A DNA stretch of 25,471 nt from NCBI GenBank assembly GCA_044220955.1, contig JBGAQA010000065.1:12612-38082 (forward strand). Reading direction: 5' to 3'. Below are positions 4,263 to 24,003 of the stretch, piece after piece (position 1 is the stretch's first letter; each line of letters opens with the position of its first letter). This DNA comes from Sandaracinaceae bacterium. Lineage in GTDB: Bacteria; Myxococcota_A; Polyangia; Polyangiales; Sandaracinaceae. The position numbers and the translations under genes are program-made. A model generated the notes under the pieces. The model made no database searches, was not told the DNA's origin, and saw only the letters and a list, made by a program, of their open reading frames with translations.

Positions 4263-5627
4263 TTGGCCAAGTCGGAGAAGATCACGATCGAGGTCGGCGG
4301 GCGCGAGGTCACGATCTCCTCGCCGGCGAAGATCTACTTCCCGGACGCGGGCATCACGAAGCTCGACGTCGTGCACTACTTCCTCGGCGTGGCCGACGGG
4401 GCTCTCCGCGGAGCGGGCGGCCGGCCGAACGTGCTCGTGCGCTACGTCGACGGGATCGCGGCGCCGCCCTTCTGGCAGAAGCGCGCGCCCGAGCATCGGC
4501 CCGACTGGCTTCAGGTCGCCTCGCTCCGATTTCCGTCGGGGCGCACCGCCGAGGAGCTCGTGCCCCGTGAGCCGGCCGCCCTCGCGTGGATGGTGAACCT
4601 CGGGTGCATCGAGCTGCATCCGCATCCCGTGCGCGCCGACGACCTCGAGCACCCGGACGAGCTCCGCGTGGATCTCGATCCGGTGCCGGGAGTGGCGTGG
4701 CCGCAGATCCGCGAGGTCGCGCGCGTGGTGCGCGAGACGCTGGCGGACCTGGGGATGGTCGGGTGGCCCAAGACGTCGGGCTCGCGCGGCATCCACGTCA
4801 ACGTTCGGATCGAGCGGCGCTGGAGCTTCCCCGAGGTGCGCCGCGCCGCCCTCGCGCTCGCCCGCGAGGTCGAGCGTCGCGCGCCGGGGCTCGCGACCAG
4901 CAAGTGGTGGAAGGAGGAGCGGCACGGCGTCTTCCTCGACTACAACCAGAACGCCAAGGATCGGACGGTGGCGAGCGCGTACTCCGTGCGGCCCAGGCCC
5001 GACGCGCGCGTGTCGGCGCCCGTGACCTGGGACGAGCTGATGGAGTGCCGGCCCGAGGACTTCACGCTGCGCACCATGCCGGCGCGCTTCGCGGCGATCG
5101 GCGACCGGCACGGGGGGATCGACGCGCACGCCTGCTCGCTCGAGCGGCTGCTCGAGCTCTCGGCGCGCGACGAGGGCTCGGGGCTCGGGGATGCGCCCTG
5201 GCCGCCGCACTACCGGAAGCAAGACGGAGAGCCGCCGCGCGTGCAGCCCTCGCGCGCCCGGAAGAACTGGTCACCGCCCGAGCCGAGGGCGCCGGGCGAG
5301 CTGCCCCGGGCGTCGAGGCGCAAGAGCACGAAGCCCCTGATCGAGATCGGCCGGGCGGAGAAGAAAGAGGACGCCCTCGCCGGCCTCGAGCGCTGGAAGG
5401 CCAAGCACCCGGACGTCGCGCCGCTGCTCGCGCCGGCCGACGTGCTCGTCGACGCGATGCGCGGCCGCTACACGGCGTGGTGGCGCGTGCGCGTGAACCT
5501 CGAGCACGTGCCGGAGCAGAGGCGGCCGGCTCAGGAGGCGCTCGAGGTCGACTACGACCCGGGGGACATCCGTCCGGTGCGCGCGGGTGGTCCGTCGCGG
5601 CGAGCGGGGAGCGAGGGCGAGAGCTAG
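4263..5627 (+). CDS. stand-alone LigD-type primase-polymerase (AEP; Prim-PolC/PolD-like) with C-terminal extension
   Basis: TKLDVVHY, FWQKRAP, LRVDLDP, KTSGSRGIH, VFLDYNQNAKDRTVASAYSVR, VSAPVTWDE; extra C-terminal domain PLIEIGRA...VLVDAMRGR. Confidence 0.92.
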   Translation: MAKSEKITIEVGGREVTISSPAKIYFPDAGITKLDVVHYFLGVADGALRGAGGRPNVLVRYVDGIAAPPFWQKRAPEHRPDWLQVASLRFPSGRTAEELVPREPAALAWMVNLGCIELHPHPVRADDLEHPDELRVDLDPVPGVAWPQIREVARVVRETLADLGMVGWPKTSGSRGIHVNVRIERRWSFPEVRRAALALAREVERRAPGLATSKWWKEERHGVFLDYNQNAKDRTVASAYSVRPRPDARVSAPVTWDELMECRPEDFTLRTMPARFAAIGDRHGGIDAHACSLERLLELSARDEGSGLGDAPWPPHYRKQDGEPPRVQPSRARKNWSPPEPRAPGELPRASRRKSTKPLIEIGRAEKKEDALAGLERWKAKHPDVAPLLAPADVLVDAMRGRYTAWWRVRVNLEHVPEQRRPAQEALEVDYDPGDIRPVRAGGPSRRAGSEGES

Positions 5628-14199: not shown

Positions 14200-14292
14200 G
14201 GACCGCTCCGTCTGATCGACCCGTAAACACGTGCGCGCGGGTTTCAATCCCCTCGCACGGGCAGCCCCTGGAGTTTGGTAGGCTCCGCGCCG

Positions 14293-15495
14293 ATGCGCGT
14301 CCTCGTCGCCGACAAGCTCTCGTCCTTCGTCCCCGGCCGCCTGCAAGATCTCGGCGCGCGCGTCGAGGTCGACCCCAAGCTCGACGGCGACGCGCTGACG
14401 GCCAAGGTCGGCGAGCTGGATCCGGCGGTGCTCATCGTGCGGAGCACGAGGGTGAGCGCAGCGCAGATCGCCGCCGGCAAGGGGCTCTCGCTCGTCATCC
14501 GGGCGGGCGCCGGCGTGAACACGATCGATCTGCCCGCCTGCTCCGAGCGCGGCATCTACGTCGCGAACTGCCCCGGCAAGAACGCCGTCGCGGTCGCCGA
14601 GCTGGCGATGGGGCACCTCGTGAACATCGATCGCCGGATCGCCGACAACGTCGCGTCGCTCCGCGCCCACCAGTGGGACAAGAAGGCCTTCGGCGAGGCG
14701 CGCGGCCTGCGTGGGCGGACGCTGGCGATCCTCGGCTTCGGCGCGATCGGCAAGGAGGTGGCGCTCCGCGCGAAGGCCTTCGGGATGAAGGTCGTCGCGT
14801 GGTCGCTCTTCGCGCCGGGCGAGGCGGAGGGATACGGCATCGAGAAGGCGACGACGGCGGAGGCGGCGGTCACGAACGCCGACGCCGTGAGCGTCCACCT
14901 GCCGTTCACGCCCGAGACGAGGAGGCGGATCGGCGCGTCGGTGTTCGGCGCGATGAAGCAGGGCGCGTACTTCGTGAACACCTCGCGCGGCGAGGTCGTC
15001 GACCAGGACGCGCTCGTGGAGGCCATCAGGACGCGCGGCATCAAGGCGGGGCTCGACGTGTTCGCCGCGGAGCCGAGCGCGGCCAAGGCCGCGTTCGAGG
15101 ATCCGATCGTGGACCTGCCGGGCGTCTACGGGACCTGCCACATCGGCGCGAGCACCGACGAGGCGGAGGAGGCCGTCGGCGAGGAGGTCGTGCGCATCGT
15201 GGCGGCCTACCGCAACGCCGAGCCGATCCCGAACTGCGTGAACCTCGCGAAGAAGTCCGCGGCGACGCACGTCATCGCGGTGCGCCACGCCGATCGCGTG
15301 GGCGTGCTCGCGCGGGTGCTCGGGGTGCTGAGCGAGGCGCGGCACAACGTGCAGGGCATGGAGAACATCGTGTTCTCGGGCGGGCAGGCCGCGCTCGTGC
15401 GCATCGAGATCGTCGGCGAGCCGGAGGAGCGGGTGCTCGCGGCGATCGCGGCGAGCGCGGACGTCTTCCACGTCGGGGCGAGCTCGATCGGCTGA
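14293..15495 (+). CDS. serA: D-3-phosphoglycerate dehydrogenase-like 2-hydroxyacid dehydrogenase with C-terminal ACT domain
   Basis: RAGAGVNTID, NAVAVAE, GFGAIG, VNTSRG, LDVF..EP, HIGAST.EA; ACT HADRVGVLA. TG-n-TAGGCT -10 box 8 nt before ATG. Confidence 0.85.
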   Translation: MRVLVADKLSSFVPGRLQDLGARVEVDPKLDGDALTAKVGELDPAVLIVRSTRVSAAQIAAGKGLSLVIRAGAGVNTIDLPACSERGIYVANCPGKNAVAVAELAMGHLVNIDRRIADNVASLRAHQWDKKAFGEARGLRGRTLAILGFGAIGKEVALRAKAFGMKVVAWSLFAPGEAEGYGIEKATTAEAAVTNADAVSVHLPFTPETRRRIGASVFGAMKQGAYFVNTSRGEVVDQDALVEAIRTRGIKAGLDVFAAEPSAAKAAFEDPIVDLPGVYGTCHIGASTDEAEEAVGEEVVRIVAAYRNAEPIPNCVNLAKKSAATHVIAVRHADRVGVLARVLGVLSEARHNVQGMENIVFSGGQAALVRIEIVGEPEERVLAAIAASADVFHVGASSIG

Positions 15496-16581: not shown

Positions 16582-17544
16582 CTACTCGTCGAAGAAGCGC
16601 GGCCTCGGCTCGCTCGGCAGGGCCGTGCGCCACTCGTAGGGCTCCGTGTCGTCGGCGAGCTGCCCGGCGAGTCGCATCAGGGTGGCGGGCTCGAGCGGGT
16701 AGCGCGCCCCCGACGTGATCGCCGACGCGTACACGTCGCGGAACGTCGCGTCGTCGTCAGGGACGGCGGCCCACGCGCGACGCAGCACGCCCGGAGTGAG
16801 CGCCGCATGGAGGTCACCGAGCATCTGCGCGAGCCGCGTGATCCGCGTGCGCTCGGTGCGCAGCTCGTTCGTGATCTCCGGCGAGCCGGTCGACACGCGG
16901 CCGATCATCTCGGGGCTCACCAGCACGTACTCGCGCGAGAGCGCGCGCGATCCGTCGTGCTCGCTCACCTCGTGGATCAAGAGCACGGCGGCCCACAGGT
17001 CCGGCACCTGCGACGCCTCCGCGAAGGGCGCCGAGACGCCGCGCTCGGTCGCGAACCGGACGCTCGGCGGCGCCGTACGCGCGTCGTAGAGGACGAGCAC
17101 CGACTCCGGACGGAGCTCGACGCGCACGAGGTGATCTCCCGCCGGCTCGCGCCCCGGCCAGCCGAGGCGGCTCGCCCAGGGCGAGGGCCACGCGCGACGA
17201 CGACCGCTACGGGCAGGCTCGCGCAGGTGTGCCGCGATCTCGGACGCGTCGCCCTCCATCGCCAGATCGAGGGAGACGTCCGCCGACGAGGGCAGCGTAC
17301 CGATGCTGCCTCCAGCCCGCAGCGCGCCGAGATCCTCGTCGTCCACCCACGCGTAGAGGACCGGCGCGCCGAAGTGCGTCTCGCTGATCGCCTGCGTGCG
17401 AAGCCAGTCACGGACGACCCGCTGCTGCGCGTCGAGGGGCGCCGGCGCGCTCGGAGGCGGGCGCCCCGCGTCGTGCGATCGCGCGTCGGCCTCACAGGCG
17501 CAGCCGGCGGCCATCAAGAGCAGGAGCGCCGCGCCGGTCCGCAC
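16582..17544 (-). CDS. hypothetical lipoprotein
   Basis: GTG 17544 gives VRTGAALLLLMAAGC; TACGCT -10 box lies 7 nt upstream; protein-like composition; fills the gap up to aspS. Confidence 0.7.
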   Translation of the reverse strand: MRTGAALLLLMAAGCACEADARSHDAGRPPPSAPAPLDAQQRVVRDWLRTQAISETHFGAPVLYAWVDDEDLGALRAGGSIGTLPSSADVSLDLAMEGDASEIAAHLREPARSGRRRAWPSPWASRLGWPGREPAGDHLVRVELRPESVLVLYDARTAPPSVRFATERGVSAPFAEASQVPDLWAAVLLIHEVSEHDGSRALSREYVLVSPEMIGRVSTGSPEITNELRTERTRITRLAQMLGDLHAALTPGVLRRAWAAVPDDDATFRDVYASAITSGARYPLEPATLMRLAGQLADDTEPYEWRTALPSEPRPRFFDE

Positions 17545-17581
17545 GCCGCTCAGCGTACGACGTGCTACAGCAGCCGTCCCC

Positions 17582-19462
17582 ATGCGTTTCATCGACGAGC
17601 TCAAGCGAACTGACTACGCCGGCGCGCTCCGGGAGACCGACATCGATCGCGAGGTCGTGCTCTTCGGCTGGGTGCACTCACGGCGGGACCACGGCGGCTG
17701 CATCTTCATCGACCTGCGCGACCGCGAGGGCTTCGCGCAGGTGATGTTCGATCCGAACGTGAACGCCGAGGCGTTCAGGGTCGCGGACCAGGCGCGCAGC
17801 GAGTGGGTGCTCGGCATCCGCGGCAAGGTGCGCGACCGCGGCAACATGCGGAACCCGAAGATCCCCACCGGCGCCGTCGAGGTCGTGGCGAGCGAGGCGG
17901 TCATCTTCAACAAGGCCGAGACGCCCGTCTTCCCGATCGAGGACGCCATCGACACCAACGAGGAGAAGCGGCTCGAGCACCGCTACCTCGACCTCCGCCG
18001 CCCGCGCCTGCAGAAGAACATCCTGACGCGCAGCAAGATCTACCACCACACGCGCAGCCACTTCGTCGACCACGGCTTCGTCGAGGTCGAGACGCCGATC
18101 TTCGTGAAGTACACGCCCGGCGGCGCGCGCAACTTCCTCGTGCCCGCGCGCCTCAACCCCGGCTCGTTCTACGCGCTCGCCGAGTCGCCGCAGCTGTTCA
18201 AGCAGCTGCTGATGGTGAGCGGCTTCGACCGCTACATCCAGATCGTGAAGTGCTTCCGAGACGAGGATCTGCGCGGGGACCGCCAGCCCGAGTTCACGCA
18301 GATCGACGTGGAGATGAGCTTCGTCAACCAGGACGACATCTTCGGCATCATCGAGAAGCTCGTGGTCCGCCTGTGGAAAGAGGTCCTCGGCGTCGATCTC
18401 ACCAAGCGCTATCCCGAGAAGAACGGCAAGCACTTCCCGCGCATGCAGTTCGAGCAGTCGATGTCGAAGTACGGCAACGACAAGCCGGACCTACGCTTCG
18501 ACATGCCGCACGTGGACGTCACGCACGTCGTCGTCGAGCACGGCGGCGGGGGCGTCGCGATGCTGACGCCGATCGCCGAGAAGTTCGCCAGCGGTCAGTA
18601 CCGGAAGGATCTGCCCGAAGAGATCGTCAAGGCCATGGTCGTCCCGGCGGCCAGGGCGGGCGGCCTCTCGCGTGCCGAGCTCGACAAGCTCGAGGCCTTC
18701 GTGAAGCAGATGGGCGCCAAGGGGCTCGCGCGCGCGAAGATCGGCCCAGGCGGCGAGTGGCAGCAGAGCCCGATGGCCAAGACCGCGACCAAGGCGTTCG
18801 TCGAGGCGGTCAACGCCGCGTGCGACGCGAAGGAGGGCGACCTCGTCTTCTTCCAGTTCGGCGCCGAGACGCTGGTCCACACGGTGATGGCGAACCTGCG
18901 CCTGCACCTCGGCAAGAAGCTCGGACTGATCCCGGAGGTCGGGGCCAAGAGCGAGAGCCACCCGCACGGCGACTGGAACTTCCTCTGGGTCGTCGAGCCG
19001 CCGCTCTTCGAGCGCGGCGAGAAGCCGGGGTCGTGGGTCGCGGCCCATCATCCGTTCACGCGTCCGCACGACGGCTCGCTCGCAGATCTCGAGAAGGACC
19101 CGGGCAAGGTGCTCTGCTACCGCTACGACCTCGTGCTCAACGGGGTGGAGCTCGGCGGCGGCTCGATCCGCCTGCACGATCCCGAGGTGCAGAAGCGCGT
19201 GTTCGCGACGCTCGGCATCGACGACGCGACCGCCCAGGAGAAGTTCGGCTTCCTCCTCTCGGGCCTGCGCCACGGCGCCCCGCCCCACGGCGGCATCGCG
19301 CTCGGCCTCGATCGCCTCTGCATGCTGCTCACCGAGAGCGAGAGCCTGCGCGACGTGATCGCCTTCCCCAAGACGGGGAAGGGCTCGGATCTGATGACGG
19401 GCGCGCCGGGCACGGTGCTCCCCGAGCAGCTCGCCGAGCTCAAGATCCGCAGCCTCGCGTAG
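17582..19462 (+). CDS. aspS: aspartate-tRNA ligase, probably non-discriminating Asp/Asn
   Basis: RRDHGG..FIDLRDR, RYLDLRR, TPGGARNF, CFRDEDLRGDRQPEFTQIDVEMSF, GAPPHGGIALGLDR. His in RRDHG is typical of non-discriminating enzymes. Confidence 0.97.
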   Translation: MRFIDELKRTDYAGALRETDIDREVVLFGWVHSRRDHGGCIFIDLRDREGFAQVMFDPNVNAEAFRVADQARSEWVLGIRGKVRDRGNMRNPKIPTGAVEVVASEAVIFNKAETPVFPIEDAIDTNEEKRLEHRYLDLRRPRLQKNILTRSKIYHHTRSHFVDHGFVEVETPIFVKYTPGGARNFLVPARLNPGSFYALAESPQLFKQLLMVSGFDRYIQIVKCFRDEDLRGDRQPEFTQIDVEMSFVNQDDIFGIIEKLVVRLWKEVLGVDLTKRYPEKNGKHFPRMQFEQSMSKYGNDKPDLRFDMPHVDVTHVVVEHGGGGVAMLTPIAEKFASGQYRKDLPEEIVKAMVVPAARAGGLSRAELDKLEAFVKQMGAKGLARAKIGPGGEWQQSPMAKTATKAFVEAVNAACDAKEGDLVFFQFGAETLVHTVMANLRLHLGKKLGLIPEVGAKSESHPHGDWNFLWVVEPPLFERGEKPGSWVAAHHPFTRPHDGSLADLEKDPGKVLCYRYDLVLNGVELGGGSIRLHDPEVQKRVFATLGIDDATAQEKFGFLLSGLRHGAPPHGGIALGLDRLCMLLTESESLRDVIAFPKTGKGSDLMTGAPGTVLPEQLAELKIRSLA

Positions 19463-19820: not shown

Positions 19821-20207
19821 TCAGTGCCAGACGTGCTGGAGCGCGCGCCAGCCGGGCGAGCTCGCGTCGCCCGTCGGGGTCACGACGACCAAGCACCGGT
19901 CGCGGCTCTCCGTGAGCGCCTGCTCGCGCTGCGAGAAGTCCTCCAGCGGAAACGACTCGGGGAGCGCACCGGGCCAGATCCACACGCAGACCCGCACGGT
20001 GTCACCCGCGCTCGTCGCGGCGAAGCACTCGCTGCGGACGACGTCGGGAAACGCCGCCGCACGTGGGTCGCTCGGCGACGACGCAGCGAGCGTGTAGCCC
20101 GCCGCGCTCAGGTTGGCGCGGACCTCCGCGGCGCTCGCCGCGTCGTGGGCGCACGCCGCGAGGAGCGGGATCGCCGACAGGGTGATGGCGGGTCCGGCTC
20201 GTCGCAT
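19821..20207 (-). CDS. hypothetical lipoprotein
   Basis: [21 protein letters not shown]-n-TAGCCT -10 box 7 nt upstream. Confidence 0.65.
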
Positions 20208-20240
20208 GGCGAGGAGGCTACCACCGCCTATCATCGCGCG
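20208..20240. promoter_or_regulatory. putative divergent leaderless promoter pair
   Basis: TAGCCT on - (20215-20220) lies 7 nt from ATG 20207; TATCAT on + (20229-20234) lies 6 nt from ATG 20241. Confidence 0.6.
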
Positions 20241-20798
20241 ATGGTGCGTCCTGACGACGAGGCGCTCGCGGATGAAATCGCGGACGAGTCGTCACGCCGT
20301 GTCGATCTCGCGGGTGAGAGTCCCGCCCGGGAAAGCGTCGGAGCGCCCGGTAGCAGGCCCCCGGTGCGGAGCCGAAAAGCTCTGGCCGAAGCGGGGCGTC
20401 GAAAGCCTGGTGAAAGAGACAGGGAGCGAAGCTGCGGGCCGCAACGCGCAGTGAACGCCGAGCAAGCCTCGTCAGATTATCAGCCGAAAGGTGATTGGGA
20501 GCGCCGAGACGGTCATTTCGCGTCGAAGGCCATGCACAGCGCGCCAGATCCGGAGCGCGCGCTGGGGCTCCCCGGGGTAGTGGCGGCGGCACGCAGCGAC
20601 AGATCGACAGGGAACAGGAGAGGTCCGTCCTCGCAGCATTCGTCGTGCGAGGCGGCGCGTATAAGCGCAGAGCGCGAAGTCGCGTCGTGCGAGGCGGAAG
20701 TCCGAGGGGGTCGTAGTACCGACGAAGCGGCGGACAACGCCGCGGAGGGAAGGACCCCTGCTTCGGTCGTGTGGGCGGATGCAGGTAAGCGCGAGGGC

Positions 20799-22211
20799 AT
20801 GCCCGCGAGGGCCAACGACCCCGCAGTGAAAGTGCGAGAACTGCAACGCGCGCTCTATCGGTGTGCCAAGCGGAGTGGGACGAGGCGCTTCCATGCGCTG
20901 TACGACCGGATCTGCAGGCGTGACGTCCTGCAGGAAGCATGGAAGCGCGTGCGCGCGAACGGCGGAGCGGCCGGCGTCGATGGTGAGAGCATCGATGCGA
21001 TCGAGCGGAGCGGGGTCGAGCAGTTCCTCGCGATGATCGAGGCAGAGCTACGCGAAGGCGACTACCGCCCGAGCCCGGTGCGGCGGCAGAACATCCCGAA
21101 GAGCGACGGCAAGCTGCGTCCACTCGGAATCCCGACGGTGCGGGATCGAGTGGTGCAGCAAGCGACGAAGCTGGTGATCGAGCCGATCTTCGAAGCGGAC
21201 TTCCGTGGGTGCTCCCACGGCTTCCGTCCGAGGCGCGGCGCGCTCGGTGCCAAGGAAGCCATCCGTGTGATGGCGAACCGCGGCTACAACTTCGTCGTCG
21301 ACGCGGACATCCGGAGCTTCTTCGACAGCATCGATCAGCAGAAGCTGATCGCGCTGGTGGAGGAGCGGATCTCGGATCGGCGAGTCGTGAAGCTGATCCG
21401 ACAGTGGCTCGGTGCGGGCGTGATGGAGAGCGGCAACTTCCGCGAGACGATCGCGGGCACGCCGCAGGGAGGGGTGATCTCACCGCTCCTGGCGAACATC
21501 TACCTGCACGCCTTCGATCGAACCTGGCAAGCCGAGCACGGTCACGTCGGCGAGCTGGTGCGGTACGCGGACGACTTCGTCCTGATGTGCAGGTCGGAGT
21601 CGGCAGCGAAGGAGGCGCTCGTGCGCGCGAGAGAAATTCTCGCGCGTCTCGGGCTCGTGCTGCACCCGGACAAGACGCGTCTCGTCGACCTGCGAGGCGG
21701 CAAGGAGGGCTTCGTCTTCCTCGGCTGCGTGTTCCGGAAGCGGCGCAGCATCCAGCGGGCGCCGCACAAGCACTTCATGCAGCGGTGGCCCTCGCCGCGC
21801 GCGATGAAGCGCATCCGGGAGCGGGTCCACGATCTGACCGACGTGCGGCGCACGCGCGCGAGCGACGTGATGGAGATCATCGCGGCGCTCAACCCCGTGC
21901 TCCGCGGGTGGGGCAACTACTTCAAGACCGGCAACGCGGACACGAGGTTCAACCAGATCGACGACTACGTGCACGAGCGCATCGTGCAGTGGCTCGGCCG
22001 ACGCGGTGGACAGCGCACGCGCTTCTGGACCTCGAAGTGGCCCTCCACCCGGCTCCACGAGATGGGCCTGCACCGACTTCGCGGAACCGTCCGCTATCCG
22101 TCGCAAGCCACCGAGCAGAGACCGTCGGTAAGCCGTGTGCGGGAAACCCGCACGCACGGTTTGAACGGGGGTCCTGACGTCAACCGCCGGCCGCGGCCGG
22201 CTTTGGAGTAA
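20799..22211 (+). CDS. ltrA: group II intron reverse transcriptase/maturase
   Basis: RT0 [66 protein letters not shown] domain [12 protein letters not shown]; no HNH domain. The frame is also open from ATG 20241. Confidence 0.96.
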
Positions 22212-22224
22212 GGATCTACCAATG
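22130..22224 (+). ncRNA. group II intron catalytic domains V-VI
   Basis: AAGCCGTGTGCGGGAAACCCGCACGCACGGTTT, followed by the GGGGGTCCT/AGGATCT(A)CC stem. Confidence 0.95.
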
Positions 22225-22809
22225 CGGGTGTTCCGGAGCGTGTGCGTGTTCTGCGGCTCGAGCATCGGCGGCGATCCGCGCTTCGCGCAGAGCGCGCGGG
22301 ACCTCGGTGCTCTGCTCGCCGCGCGCGGCATCGAGCTCGTCTACGGCGGCGCGAGCGTCGGTCTGATGGGCGTCGTCGCCGACGCGGCGCTGGCCGGCGG
22401 CGGGCGCGTCGTCGGCGTCCTGCCGCGCGCGCTCGCCGACCGCGAGCTGGCTCACCGTGGCCTGAGCGAGCTGCACGTCGTGTCCTCGATGCACGAGCGC
22501 AAGGCGCGGATGGCCGCGCGCTCCGACGCGTTCGTCGCCCTCCCTGGCGGGCTCGGTACCCTCGACGAGCTCTTCGAGATCACGACGTGGGCGCAGCTCG
22601 GCATCCACGACAAGCCCATCGGCGTGCTGGACGTCGGCGACTACTATGCGCACCTCTTCTCGTTCCTCGAGCGGGCCGAGCGTGATGGGCTCGTGCGCGC
22701 GGCCCCTCGCCCCGCGCTGCACCGCGCGAGCGCGGCGGAGGTGCTCCTCGGCGCGATGGCCGCTCAGCCGCCGCGCCCGGACGCCGCGCCCGACGTACCG
22801 CCGCCCTGA
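22222..22809 (+). CDS. LOG-family nucleotide phosphoribohydrolase (TIGR00730-type); original ATG at 20241-20243
   Basis: VCVFCGSS, LVYGG..VGLMG, MHERKARM, PGGLGTLDELFE. Confidence 0.93.
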   Translation: MRVFRSVCVFCGSSIGGDPRFAQSARDLGALLAARGIELVYGGASVGLMGVVADAALAGGGRVVGVLPRALADRELAHRGLSELHVVSSMHERKARMAARSDAFVALPGGLGTLDELFEITTWAQLGIHDKPIGVLDVGDYYAHLFSFLERAERDGLVRAAPRPALHRASAAEVLLGAMAAQPPRPDAAPDVPPP

Positions 22810-22914: not shown

Positions 22915-24003
22915 ATGACCACGCGATGCACCGCCGTCCGCTCGTCGCTCGCCTTCGTCACCGTCTTGCTCACCATGCTCGGCGCTGGCTGCTCCGCCGG
23001 GGAGCAGCGCGGCGACCTCGACGTGGGCCCCGCGACGGACGCCGGCCCCCACGAAGATGTGCGCGACACGGGCGCGCGCGACGGCGGACCACGCGACGGC
23101 GGAGACGTCGGGCCGATCGTGCTCGACGCGGGCGTGGACGTCGGCGGAGCCGGCGACACGGGGCTGGGGTCGGACACGGGGCTGGGGTCGGACACGGGGC
23201 TCGGCATGGACACTGGGCTCGGTACCGACACTGGGCTCGGTACCGACACTGGGCTCGGTACGGACACGGGGCTCGGTATGGACACGGGGCTCGGGTCGGA
23301 CACGGGCGTCGGGTCGGACACCGGGCTGGGGTCGGACACCGGGCTCGGCACCGACACGGGGGTTGGAAGGGACACGGGGGTCGGGTCGGACACGGGGCTC
23401 GGGTCCGACGCGGGCAGCGACGCCGACCTCGGCTCCCGCGACGCCGGGCCGGACGCCGCGCTCCTGTGCCCTCCTGGCTATCCGACGGTCCAGATGTGCA
23501 CCGGCACGAGCACCTGCATGTGCGGCATGGGCTGTCCATGCACGATGACCTGCACGGGCGGATCGACGTGCGTGACCGACTGCATCAACGCCGGTACGCG
23601 CTGCAGCATCGACGGTCGCGGCACGAGCTCGCTCACCACGACCTGCGGCGTGGGCACGAGCTGCGGCGTCAACGCCACGGGCACGAGCGCCTCGACCCTG
23701 ACGTGCACCGGTGCGATCTGCACCATCGCGTCGACGGGCGCGAGCGACACGTCGCTCACGTGCATCGCGGGCGCCCAGTGCTCGATCGACGGTGCCGGGT
23801 CGTCCACCACCGCCGTCACCTGCACGGGCGGCAGCCGATGCGACGTCACCTGCGACCACGCCACCGACTGCGGGCTCGCGTGCATGGGCGGATCGGAGTG
23901 CCTCCTCTCCTGCGCGTCGGCGACTCGATGCGCCATGAGCGGCTGCCCGAGCCCGACGTCGTGCCCCGGCGGCGTCACCGTCTGCAACCGCGCCTGCCCC
24001 TGA
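22915..24003 (+). CDS. surface lipoprotein with (DTGLGx)14 stalk and Cys/Thr-rich C-terminal domain
   Basis: LGAGC lipobox; hexapeptide repeat; regularly spaced Cys. Confidence 0.85.
23155..23406 (+). repeat. 18-bp coding tandem repeat x14
   Basis: GACAC(G/T/C)GG..T.GG... units encoding DTG(L/V)G(S/T/M/R). Confidence 0.95.

Follow-up and report, generated by a model that had tools for sequence, protein, structure and literature searches.

The window, a 25,471-nt stretch of DNA from a Sandaracinaceae bacterium, carries a group II intron that lies directly behind the start codon of a host gene and ends in a spare ATG in frame with that gene. Judged from sequences across the intron's relatives, the conserved unit is a frame, presumably translated, that passes through domains V and VI (DV and DVI) and stops shortly before the spare ATG; the window's intron would be its fused form, with the reverse transcriptase (RT) and this relay in one frame. 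We think it likely that termination–reinitiation passes ribosomes along the unspliced intron to the host gene and thereby bypasses splicing, without acting as an on/off switch. The features concerned are as follows.

19821-20234, minus strand: 137-aa ORF, divergent from the intron/LOG unit and overlapping the −10-like box region
20229..20234, plus strand: −10-like box TATCAT of a putative leaderless promoter, with 6 nt between it and the host ATG
20241..20243, plus strand: host ATG, which closes the 5' exon (IBS1) and opens the frame that spans the intron
20241..22211, plus strand: one frame of 656 codons that leads from the host ATG across DI–DIII, the RT and DV–DVI to TAA
20244-22224, plus strand: group II intron of 1,981 nt (GTGCG...CTACCAATG), its RT without endonuclease domain
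20513..20517, plus strand: delta (T) and EBS1 (CATT), complement of the host start codon
20703..20705, plus strand: J2/3 CGA, with gamma = C pairing with the terminal G22224
20799..22211, plus strand: RT/maturase from an internal ATG, 470 aa, YADD, with C-terminal read-through over DV–DVI
22130..22162, plus strand: DV with its AGC triad at 22131-22133 (Rfam and fold)
22167..22220, plus strand: DVI stem (fold), whose bulged branch-site A, 22218, is the 7th base counted back from the intron end
22205..22214, plus strand: GGAG, the TAA stop at 22209-22211 and the SD-like AAGGA, all on the DVI 3' strand (sequence)
22222..22224, plus strand: spare ATG, the final three intron bases, in frame with LOG and 10 nt past the stop
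22222..22809, plus strand: host gene of the LOG/SLOG family, 195 aa (PF03641)
22918-24003, plus strand: ORF 3' of LOG with a signal-like start, tandem G-x-D-T repeats (~23150-23410) and a Cys-rich C-terminal part

The intron shows the DV catalytic triad, the bulged A of DVI and domain I motifs by Rfam and fold. Rfam placed a DV/DVI match at 22128-22223 and a domain I match at 20308-20449, with scores of 42.4 bits for RF00029 and 75.7 bits for RF02003; the plain fold of DI–DIII was uninformative (z −0.49). The RT/maturase in DIV contains RVT_1 and GIIM and scored 421 bits against TIGR04416 (cut-off 300), and the 186-aa ribozyme-encoded N-terminal part of the frame matched no NCBIfam family. Both intron ends are fixed by EBS1–IBS1 and gamma–gamma' pairings. 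Supporting this, a terminal G goes with J2/3 CGA in 54/54 scorable introns, a terminal C with J2/3 GGA in 12/13, and EBS1 position 1 pairs with the final exon base in 87/87. From this register it follows that the 5' exon extends up to and includes the host ATG, and that the ATG at 22222 is wholly intronic; a splice site within the ATG (AT|G, intron end AAU) was thereby ruled out. An earlier note on this DNA had taken that ATG for the start of the host gene: it is in frame with LOG, but the entire triplet, ending at G22224, belongs to the intron. The intron's terminal dinucleotide is UG, and that of group II introns is usually AY. At the branch site, 7th from the intron end, all 83 relatives have A, unpaired in 80. 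Three Paenibacillaceae outgroup introns (L044, L065 and L081) end in TAG and have J2/3 CGA wherever it could be called; a terminal G thus arose outside the start-codon clade as well.

In run X2, contig depth was 118-161 across 20240-22225 and 16-20 in the flanks. This 7-8-fold intron depth is as expected of a multicopy element and, together with the multicopy insertions described below, implies mobility. No exon–exon joint was among the 15 joints listed, and no empty allele or splice joint among those listed for X2, X10, X15 and X16; both sets come from assembled contigs, from which absence cannot be demonstrated. A DNA search of 60 relatives returned only LOG homologues of 70-76% in other contexts and no true empty allele.

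For comparison, 160 related loci were fetched and joined by two copies from the window's own genome. Among these 162 loci, 86 have window-like ends, representing 83 distinct DVIs, 22 end in the ordinary way (20 distinct) and one was mis-called; the 53 without a callable 3' end were left out. The RT tree (103 rows, fetched loci only, quick search, midpoint root) places the 83 window-like relatives in one group (SH-aLRT 95) and its hosts in at least eight phyla. The unpublished genomes G026 (L178) and G573 (L284) carry no claim. In the window's genome (G000), contigs C34, C52, C93, C167 and C290 hold at least five further 3' ends of the lineage, most of them with a TAATG relay; in the C52 copy the relay ATG and a single base of DV are missing. 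The RT of L191 (genome G003) is 84% identical to the window's, and its DVI is of a different type, resembling that of L002; compared with the window's 22163-22224 it is still in phase, with 17 nt between its stop and the start codon. The tail of the window's intron matches those of the distant L112, L023 and L038. Together, the L191 and window tails suggest that DVI modules may have been swapped between co-resident introns. RTs of Leptospira plasmids (hits H2-H15) show 52% identity.

The intron lineage follows a target rule. An NTG codon precedes the intron at 87/94 loci with a callable 5' end, placing these insertions at a start codon, and a TANNNT box lies 5-8 nt upstream of 73/81 distinct insertion sites, compared with 0.7% of 1888 control windows. 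In genome G007, six copies sit at six different genes, every one behind a TANNNT box, in agreement with the earlier proposal that the cassette is portable; in G119 the box precedes 4/5 callable copies. Both kinds of start occur in the host genome: the box is present at 61/658 heuristic starts and 0.26% of internal ATGs, and an SD-like word at 140/658 starts (7.2% in the control). The pairs of EBS1 and start codon (n=87) are CAT:ATG (65), CAT:GTG (7) and CAC:GTG (6), with CAA:TTG, CAT:TTG and CAC:ATG found once each. By covariation at the sequence level, EBS1 (CAU) thus demonstrably reads the host start codon. The boxed sites are probably leaderless starts, as their sequence suggests, and the intron may recognise the promoter or open complex. 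At the window's insertion site no full sigma-70 promoter was found, and no intrinsic terminator in 20100-20400. One relative, L111, sits directly after the terminal CTACCAATG of another intron (5' junction; tandem introns), so the spare ATG is itself an insertion target; the 5' junction of L011 follows a similar TACCAATG. L091 is a clade member off start codons, with EBS1 ATT pairing an exon end AAT and an intron ending in AAG, not ATG.

The host protein matched TIGR00730 above the cut-off and CtkRMPhLog below it, and most intron-free LOG homologues have an in-frame start about 4 codons or less from 22222. The frame downstream of the spare ATG is open for at least 80 codons in 59/66 relatives, and the other frames in 13 and 30. 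The ORFs at 22918-24003 and 19821-20234 had no Pfam match. Elsewhere in the window, genes at 391-1545 and 4263-5627 (plus strand) and at 14275-15495 and 17396-19462 (minus strand) look, by the appearance of their sequence alone, like an ATP-dependent DNA ligase, a LigD polymerase-like protein, a phosphoglycerate dehydrogenase-like protein and an aspartyl-tRNA synthetase.

Upstream of the RT, the frame conserved among the relatives is that of the host ATG. The earlier note had correctly followed the open RT frame across DV and DVI to the TAA at 22209-22211; its beginning, however, is the host ATG at 20241 and not the RT ATG at 20799. In 73/85 introns the host-ATG frame has no stop for at least 300 nt; the other frames reach this length in 0/85. 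In a one-step test with controls, 36 of the 85 reached the RT without interruption and another 34 by a single hand-over (controls 9 and 3), and 15 had no simple 5' hand-over. The RT-dead copies L230 (1,138 nt, with a second frame also stop-free) and L261 (893 nt) each retain a single frame that begins at the host ATG and ends at the DVI stop; phase is lost in the 341-nt remnant L195 and in L199 and L237. A hunt for further RT-less copies in three other phyla produced few loci. Open frames of this kind are explained equally well if translation acts as cover: it would prevent Rho polarity and RNA decay and make the RT, the DVI stop would merely keep elongating ribosomes off the host start, and the host protein would come mainly from spliced leaderless mRNA or fresh initiation. 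Such protection has a precedent in Ll.LtrB RNA, which is shielded from RNase E by ribosome association (accessible part of PMC3851717). We nevertheless regard cover without hand-over as unlikely, given the organisation of the intron's 3' end.

Among the 83 relatives, the RT stops before DV in 63 and reads into DV or DVI in 20; eight RTs, at five places on the tree, stop at the TAA/TAG triplet used in the window. By itself, so small a number would point to a local accident. But this triplet lies in the same DV frame in 19 of the 20 introns carrying it, including 11/11 whose RT stops before DV. Phase is kept in these early-stopping RTs because a start codon is coupled to the RT stop. Indeed, 60 of the 63 early-stopping relatives have an ATG or GTG at −12 to +9 nt of the RT stop (TAATG, TAAccATG, ATGA/GTGA and similar) that opens a frame crossing DV, and three have no relay start. 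These relay ORFs are 30-37 codons long; the nearest such frame stops 5-30 nt before the intron end in 55/60, compared with 6/60 for the other DV-open frame and with 6 and 5 of 60 when the DVI loop was shifted by 1 or 2 nt. None of the 20 outgroup introns shows relay behaviour. An ATG near the end of DIV is found in outgroup introns too and is therefore partly structural. Four relay misses stop on the spare ATG itself, where ATG and exon A form an ATGA overlap. The relay frames of L104, L116, L134, L063, L017 and L208, which have no DVI stop of their own, end on the TGA of an ATGA overlap, and the first exon base is A in merely 27/84 sites overall.

The phase of the relay is conserved as well. 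The relatives are not mutually independent and their 37 length/motif classes only partly so; 29 of these classes are in phase, compared with 13.3 expected (0/200,000 simulations). In two subclades, start and stop have both shifted into the other frame. Consistently, in 34 hold-out tails outside the discovery set, picked by their likeness to the SD-type tail, the relay frame stops in the expected interval in 32 and the other frame in one, and the relay is complete in 24/29 tails with a callable ATG. AGGA, TAA and phase might still be accidents of DVI pairing, high G+C and shared ancestry, in keeping with SD-like bases that are paired and covary as a stem and with a TAA/SD overlap that is itself lineage-specific. 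This is highly improbable in our estimate, because phase persists across seven DV-to-end lengths in the TAR class (19/20), across the frame switches and in the hold-out tails, and because alternative frames are closed (0/174).

The gap between stop and spare ATG is 6 nt in 26 cases, 9 nt in 18 and 10 nt in 7, and mostly 6-11 nt. The stop–start distance lies between −4 and 10 nt in 54/80 relatives with a DV-crossing frame and is 10 nt in the window, within the range of about −8 to +10 nt for coupled pairs. In the accessible text of PMC10666635, gaps of −8 to +10 nt are taken as predictive of termination–reinitiation, and little coupling is left once the gap reaches about 20 nt. In nine relay ORFs the distance is 16-20 nt. 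The gap widens to 24-44 nt in 12 of the 20 read-through relatives, and 11 of these 12 have no SD. These 12 relatives and the many SD-less tails fit translational cover, but stops would then be expected anywhere past DV and not clustered 6-11 nt before the ATG. Cover also leaves unexplained the intron's in-frame terminal AUG with its compensating gamma C, and the SD-like motifs of this clade (33/83 tails, 0/20 in the outgroup). Hand-over by reinitiation therefore remains our preferred reading. The earlier view that ribosomes are steered through DVI to a stop before the spare ATG agrees with this conservation, whereas the RT as their vehicle does not.

In the window's copy, the 3' strand of DVI combines several signals. 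The positions given in the earlier note, GGAG at 22205-22208, TAA at 22209-22211 and TAAGGA at 22209-22214, 7 nt before the ATG at 22222-22224, are all correct. Its reading of TAAGGA as the SD was right for AAGGA and wrong for the T of TAA, which is unpaired with the genome's own 16S tail. Against that tail, AAGGA reaches −4.9 kcal/mol at an aligned spacing of 4, and GGAG −5.9 kcal/mol at a spacing of 11. In the fold, AGGA (22211-22214) pairs with UCCU (22172-22175) below the bulged A, as had been proposed, and this stem covaries over the 83 relatives (UCUU/AGGA 10, CCUC/GAGG 7, UCCU/AGGA 6, CCCU/AGGG 5 and CGUU/AACG 3). The z of the fold is −2.46 for DVI alone and −3.36 with DV, but including 36 nt of exon brings it to just −0.42. 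It takes 6.1 kcal/mol to open AAGGA, more than the 4.9 that binding returns, and 15.8 to open the initiation footprint; folded DVI thus hides the SD, as the note had supposed, and fresh initiation on it is unlikely. Consistently, the bases at −11 to −8 are paired in 30/33 SD-bearing relatives.

The SD was expected by the earlier note to be conserved in related DVIs, and it is not. A threshold of −3.5 kcal/mol is reached in those 33 clade tails and in 16/81 host upstream regions, with best aligned spacings of 4-6 nt in 18 tails and 9-12 nt in 15; a 30-row subclade, mostly Actinomycetota, has no SD and uses a TGA 6 nt before the ATG. By these comparisons the SD is a lineage-specific extra and not the conserved unit. 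Two candidate regularities were rejected: the exact overlap of RT stop, SD and ATG as the conserved unit, and a tie between SD and open 5' frame (19 introns with both, 24 with neither, 10 and 10 discordant, 20 unscorable; confounded with clade).

An RT-specific, SD-dependent DVI switch between branching and host-gene translation, as first imagined, would be true to the window copy's sequence. Its SD is sequestered, and RT stop, SD and ATG coincide in 7/83 relatives at four separate places on the tree. We nonetheless consider such a switch quite improbable. In 25 of the 33 SD-bearing tails the RT stops before DV, and 50/83 tails have no SD. The frame is open across all six domains, so DVI is not special; moreover, the LOG protein would be identical whether made from spliced or unspliced RNA, and both outcomes of a switch would thus yield it.

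We therefore return to the bypass by termination and reinitiation. A start-codon-homing intron would insert just after the ATG or GTG of leaderless genes. On the unspliced RNA, ribosomes would load at the host's leaderless AUG, cross DI–DIII and make the RT. They would then cross DV–DVI by RT read-through in the window's copy or, in most relatives, by a restart at the start codon coupled to the RT stop, that is, in the relay ORF. After terminating on the melted 3' strand of DVI they would reinitiate at the intron's terminal AUG, with the SD-like motif, where present, as an optional aid. Translation, reinitiation and any effect on splicing are what we infer from sequence; on this basis, the host protein is probably still made when the intron stays unspliced. 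Splicing would yield the same host protein from the leaderless mRNA, and the bypass would thereby render insertion nearly harmless and feed RT synthesis. Competition between translation and folding over splicing would be a side effect.

The wider proposal, that the ribozyme including DV and DVI is selected as an mRNA, that CAU homes to leaderless starts and that ribosome traffic sets splicing and mobility, is in our judgement evenly poised between right and wrong. If true, the intron borrows the host promoter and AUG for its RT and conveys the same ribosomes to the spare AUG, and stalled translation lets the RNA fold, splice and move. Two ways are generally supposed to keep group II introns from doing harm, a hidden site between genes and efficient splicing; this lineage points to a third way, sitting at gene starts and passing ribosomes through. 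With it, the competition between translation and ribozyme folding could be tested directly within a single RNA, as could splicing from a 5' exon of just ~3 nt. The intron is also a marker of leaderless starts and could inspire an insertion tool that leaves its target gene unsilenced.

Among known systems, the yeast mitochondrial cox1 introns aI1 and aI2 likewise have an RT whose translation continues the reading frame of the upstream exon across the 5' ribozyme domains. To our knowledge, they occupy a fixed site within the gene, with neither a spare start codon nor an onward hand-over to the 3' exon. In the accessible parts of the open literature, which included PMC4028801, PMC2882425, PMC8919778, PMC7306698, PMC3851717 and PMC12548453, we found neither leaderless targeting nor a DV–DVI relay described; subscription papers such as Michel 2007 lie outside this scope.

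The closest similarity in siting is to the subgroup IIB1 (CL1) introns Avi.groEL and EcKTE56.groEL, which sit at initiation or termination codons (Michel et al. 2007, as cited in the accessible part of PMC12584367). As in the Avi.groEL type, the insertion lies in or beside translation signals and the interrupted codon is rebuilt, and the authors of PMC12584367 speculate in its accessible text that ribosomes could affect intron folding. That type, however, is CL1 with a 300-700-nt 5'-subterminal insertion, whereas the window's intron has neither the insertion nor an endonuclease (En) domain. Its domain I match begins 64 nt in and its RT ATG 555 nt in, leaving no insertion at the base of domain I. 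CL1 is the class with an En domain (PMC3552965, accessible part); the window's protein has only RVT_1 and GIIM, and its end consists of DV–DVI-derived residues. The part of PMC12584367 available to us describes no leaderless or −10 targeting, terminal AUG or DV–DVI relay frame.

Class F/g2-g5 introns are En-less IIB introns, 1.9-2.1 kb long, with RTs of ~430-445 aa (PMC3552965, Table S2, in the part accessible). Their hosts there include Myxococcus, Sorangium and Solibacter, and several lie in 'putative non-coding sequence'. The En-less RT-X and the size of the window's intron fit this class, features that are not class-specific, and some named class F introns (the named members include Mx.xa.I1, Sg.ce.I1 and So.us.I2) may belong to the window's clade. 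No target rule or translation feature is described for the class in the accessible part of PMC3552965. Class C (IIC) introns insert after intrinsic terminators (PMC12584367, PMC8919778 and PMC7306698, each in part). The window's intron resembles them in combining a short EBS1 pairing with a gene-expression landmark, which provides many safe sites, but the class C landmark is a terminator, and that of the window's intron, which does not follow an intrinsic terminator, is a transcription and translation start behind a −10 box.

The proposed hand-over itself resembles translational coupling, with TAATG and ATGA overlaps, gaps of up to ~10 nt and the opening of a hidden ribosome-binding site (PMC10666635 and PMC12548453, accessible parts). 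The unfolding of a hidden site by the upstream ribosome is the model reviewed in PMC12548453, in whose accessible text on coupling the word 'intron' is absent. Unlike the coupled genes known so far from these sources, the upstream ORF of the window's intron lies overprinted on a ribozyme's catalytic and branch domains and moves with the element.
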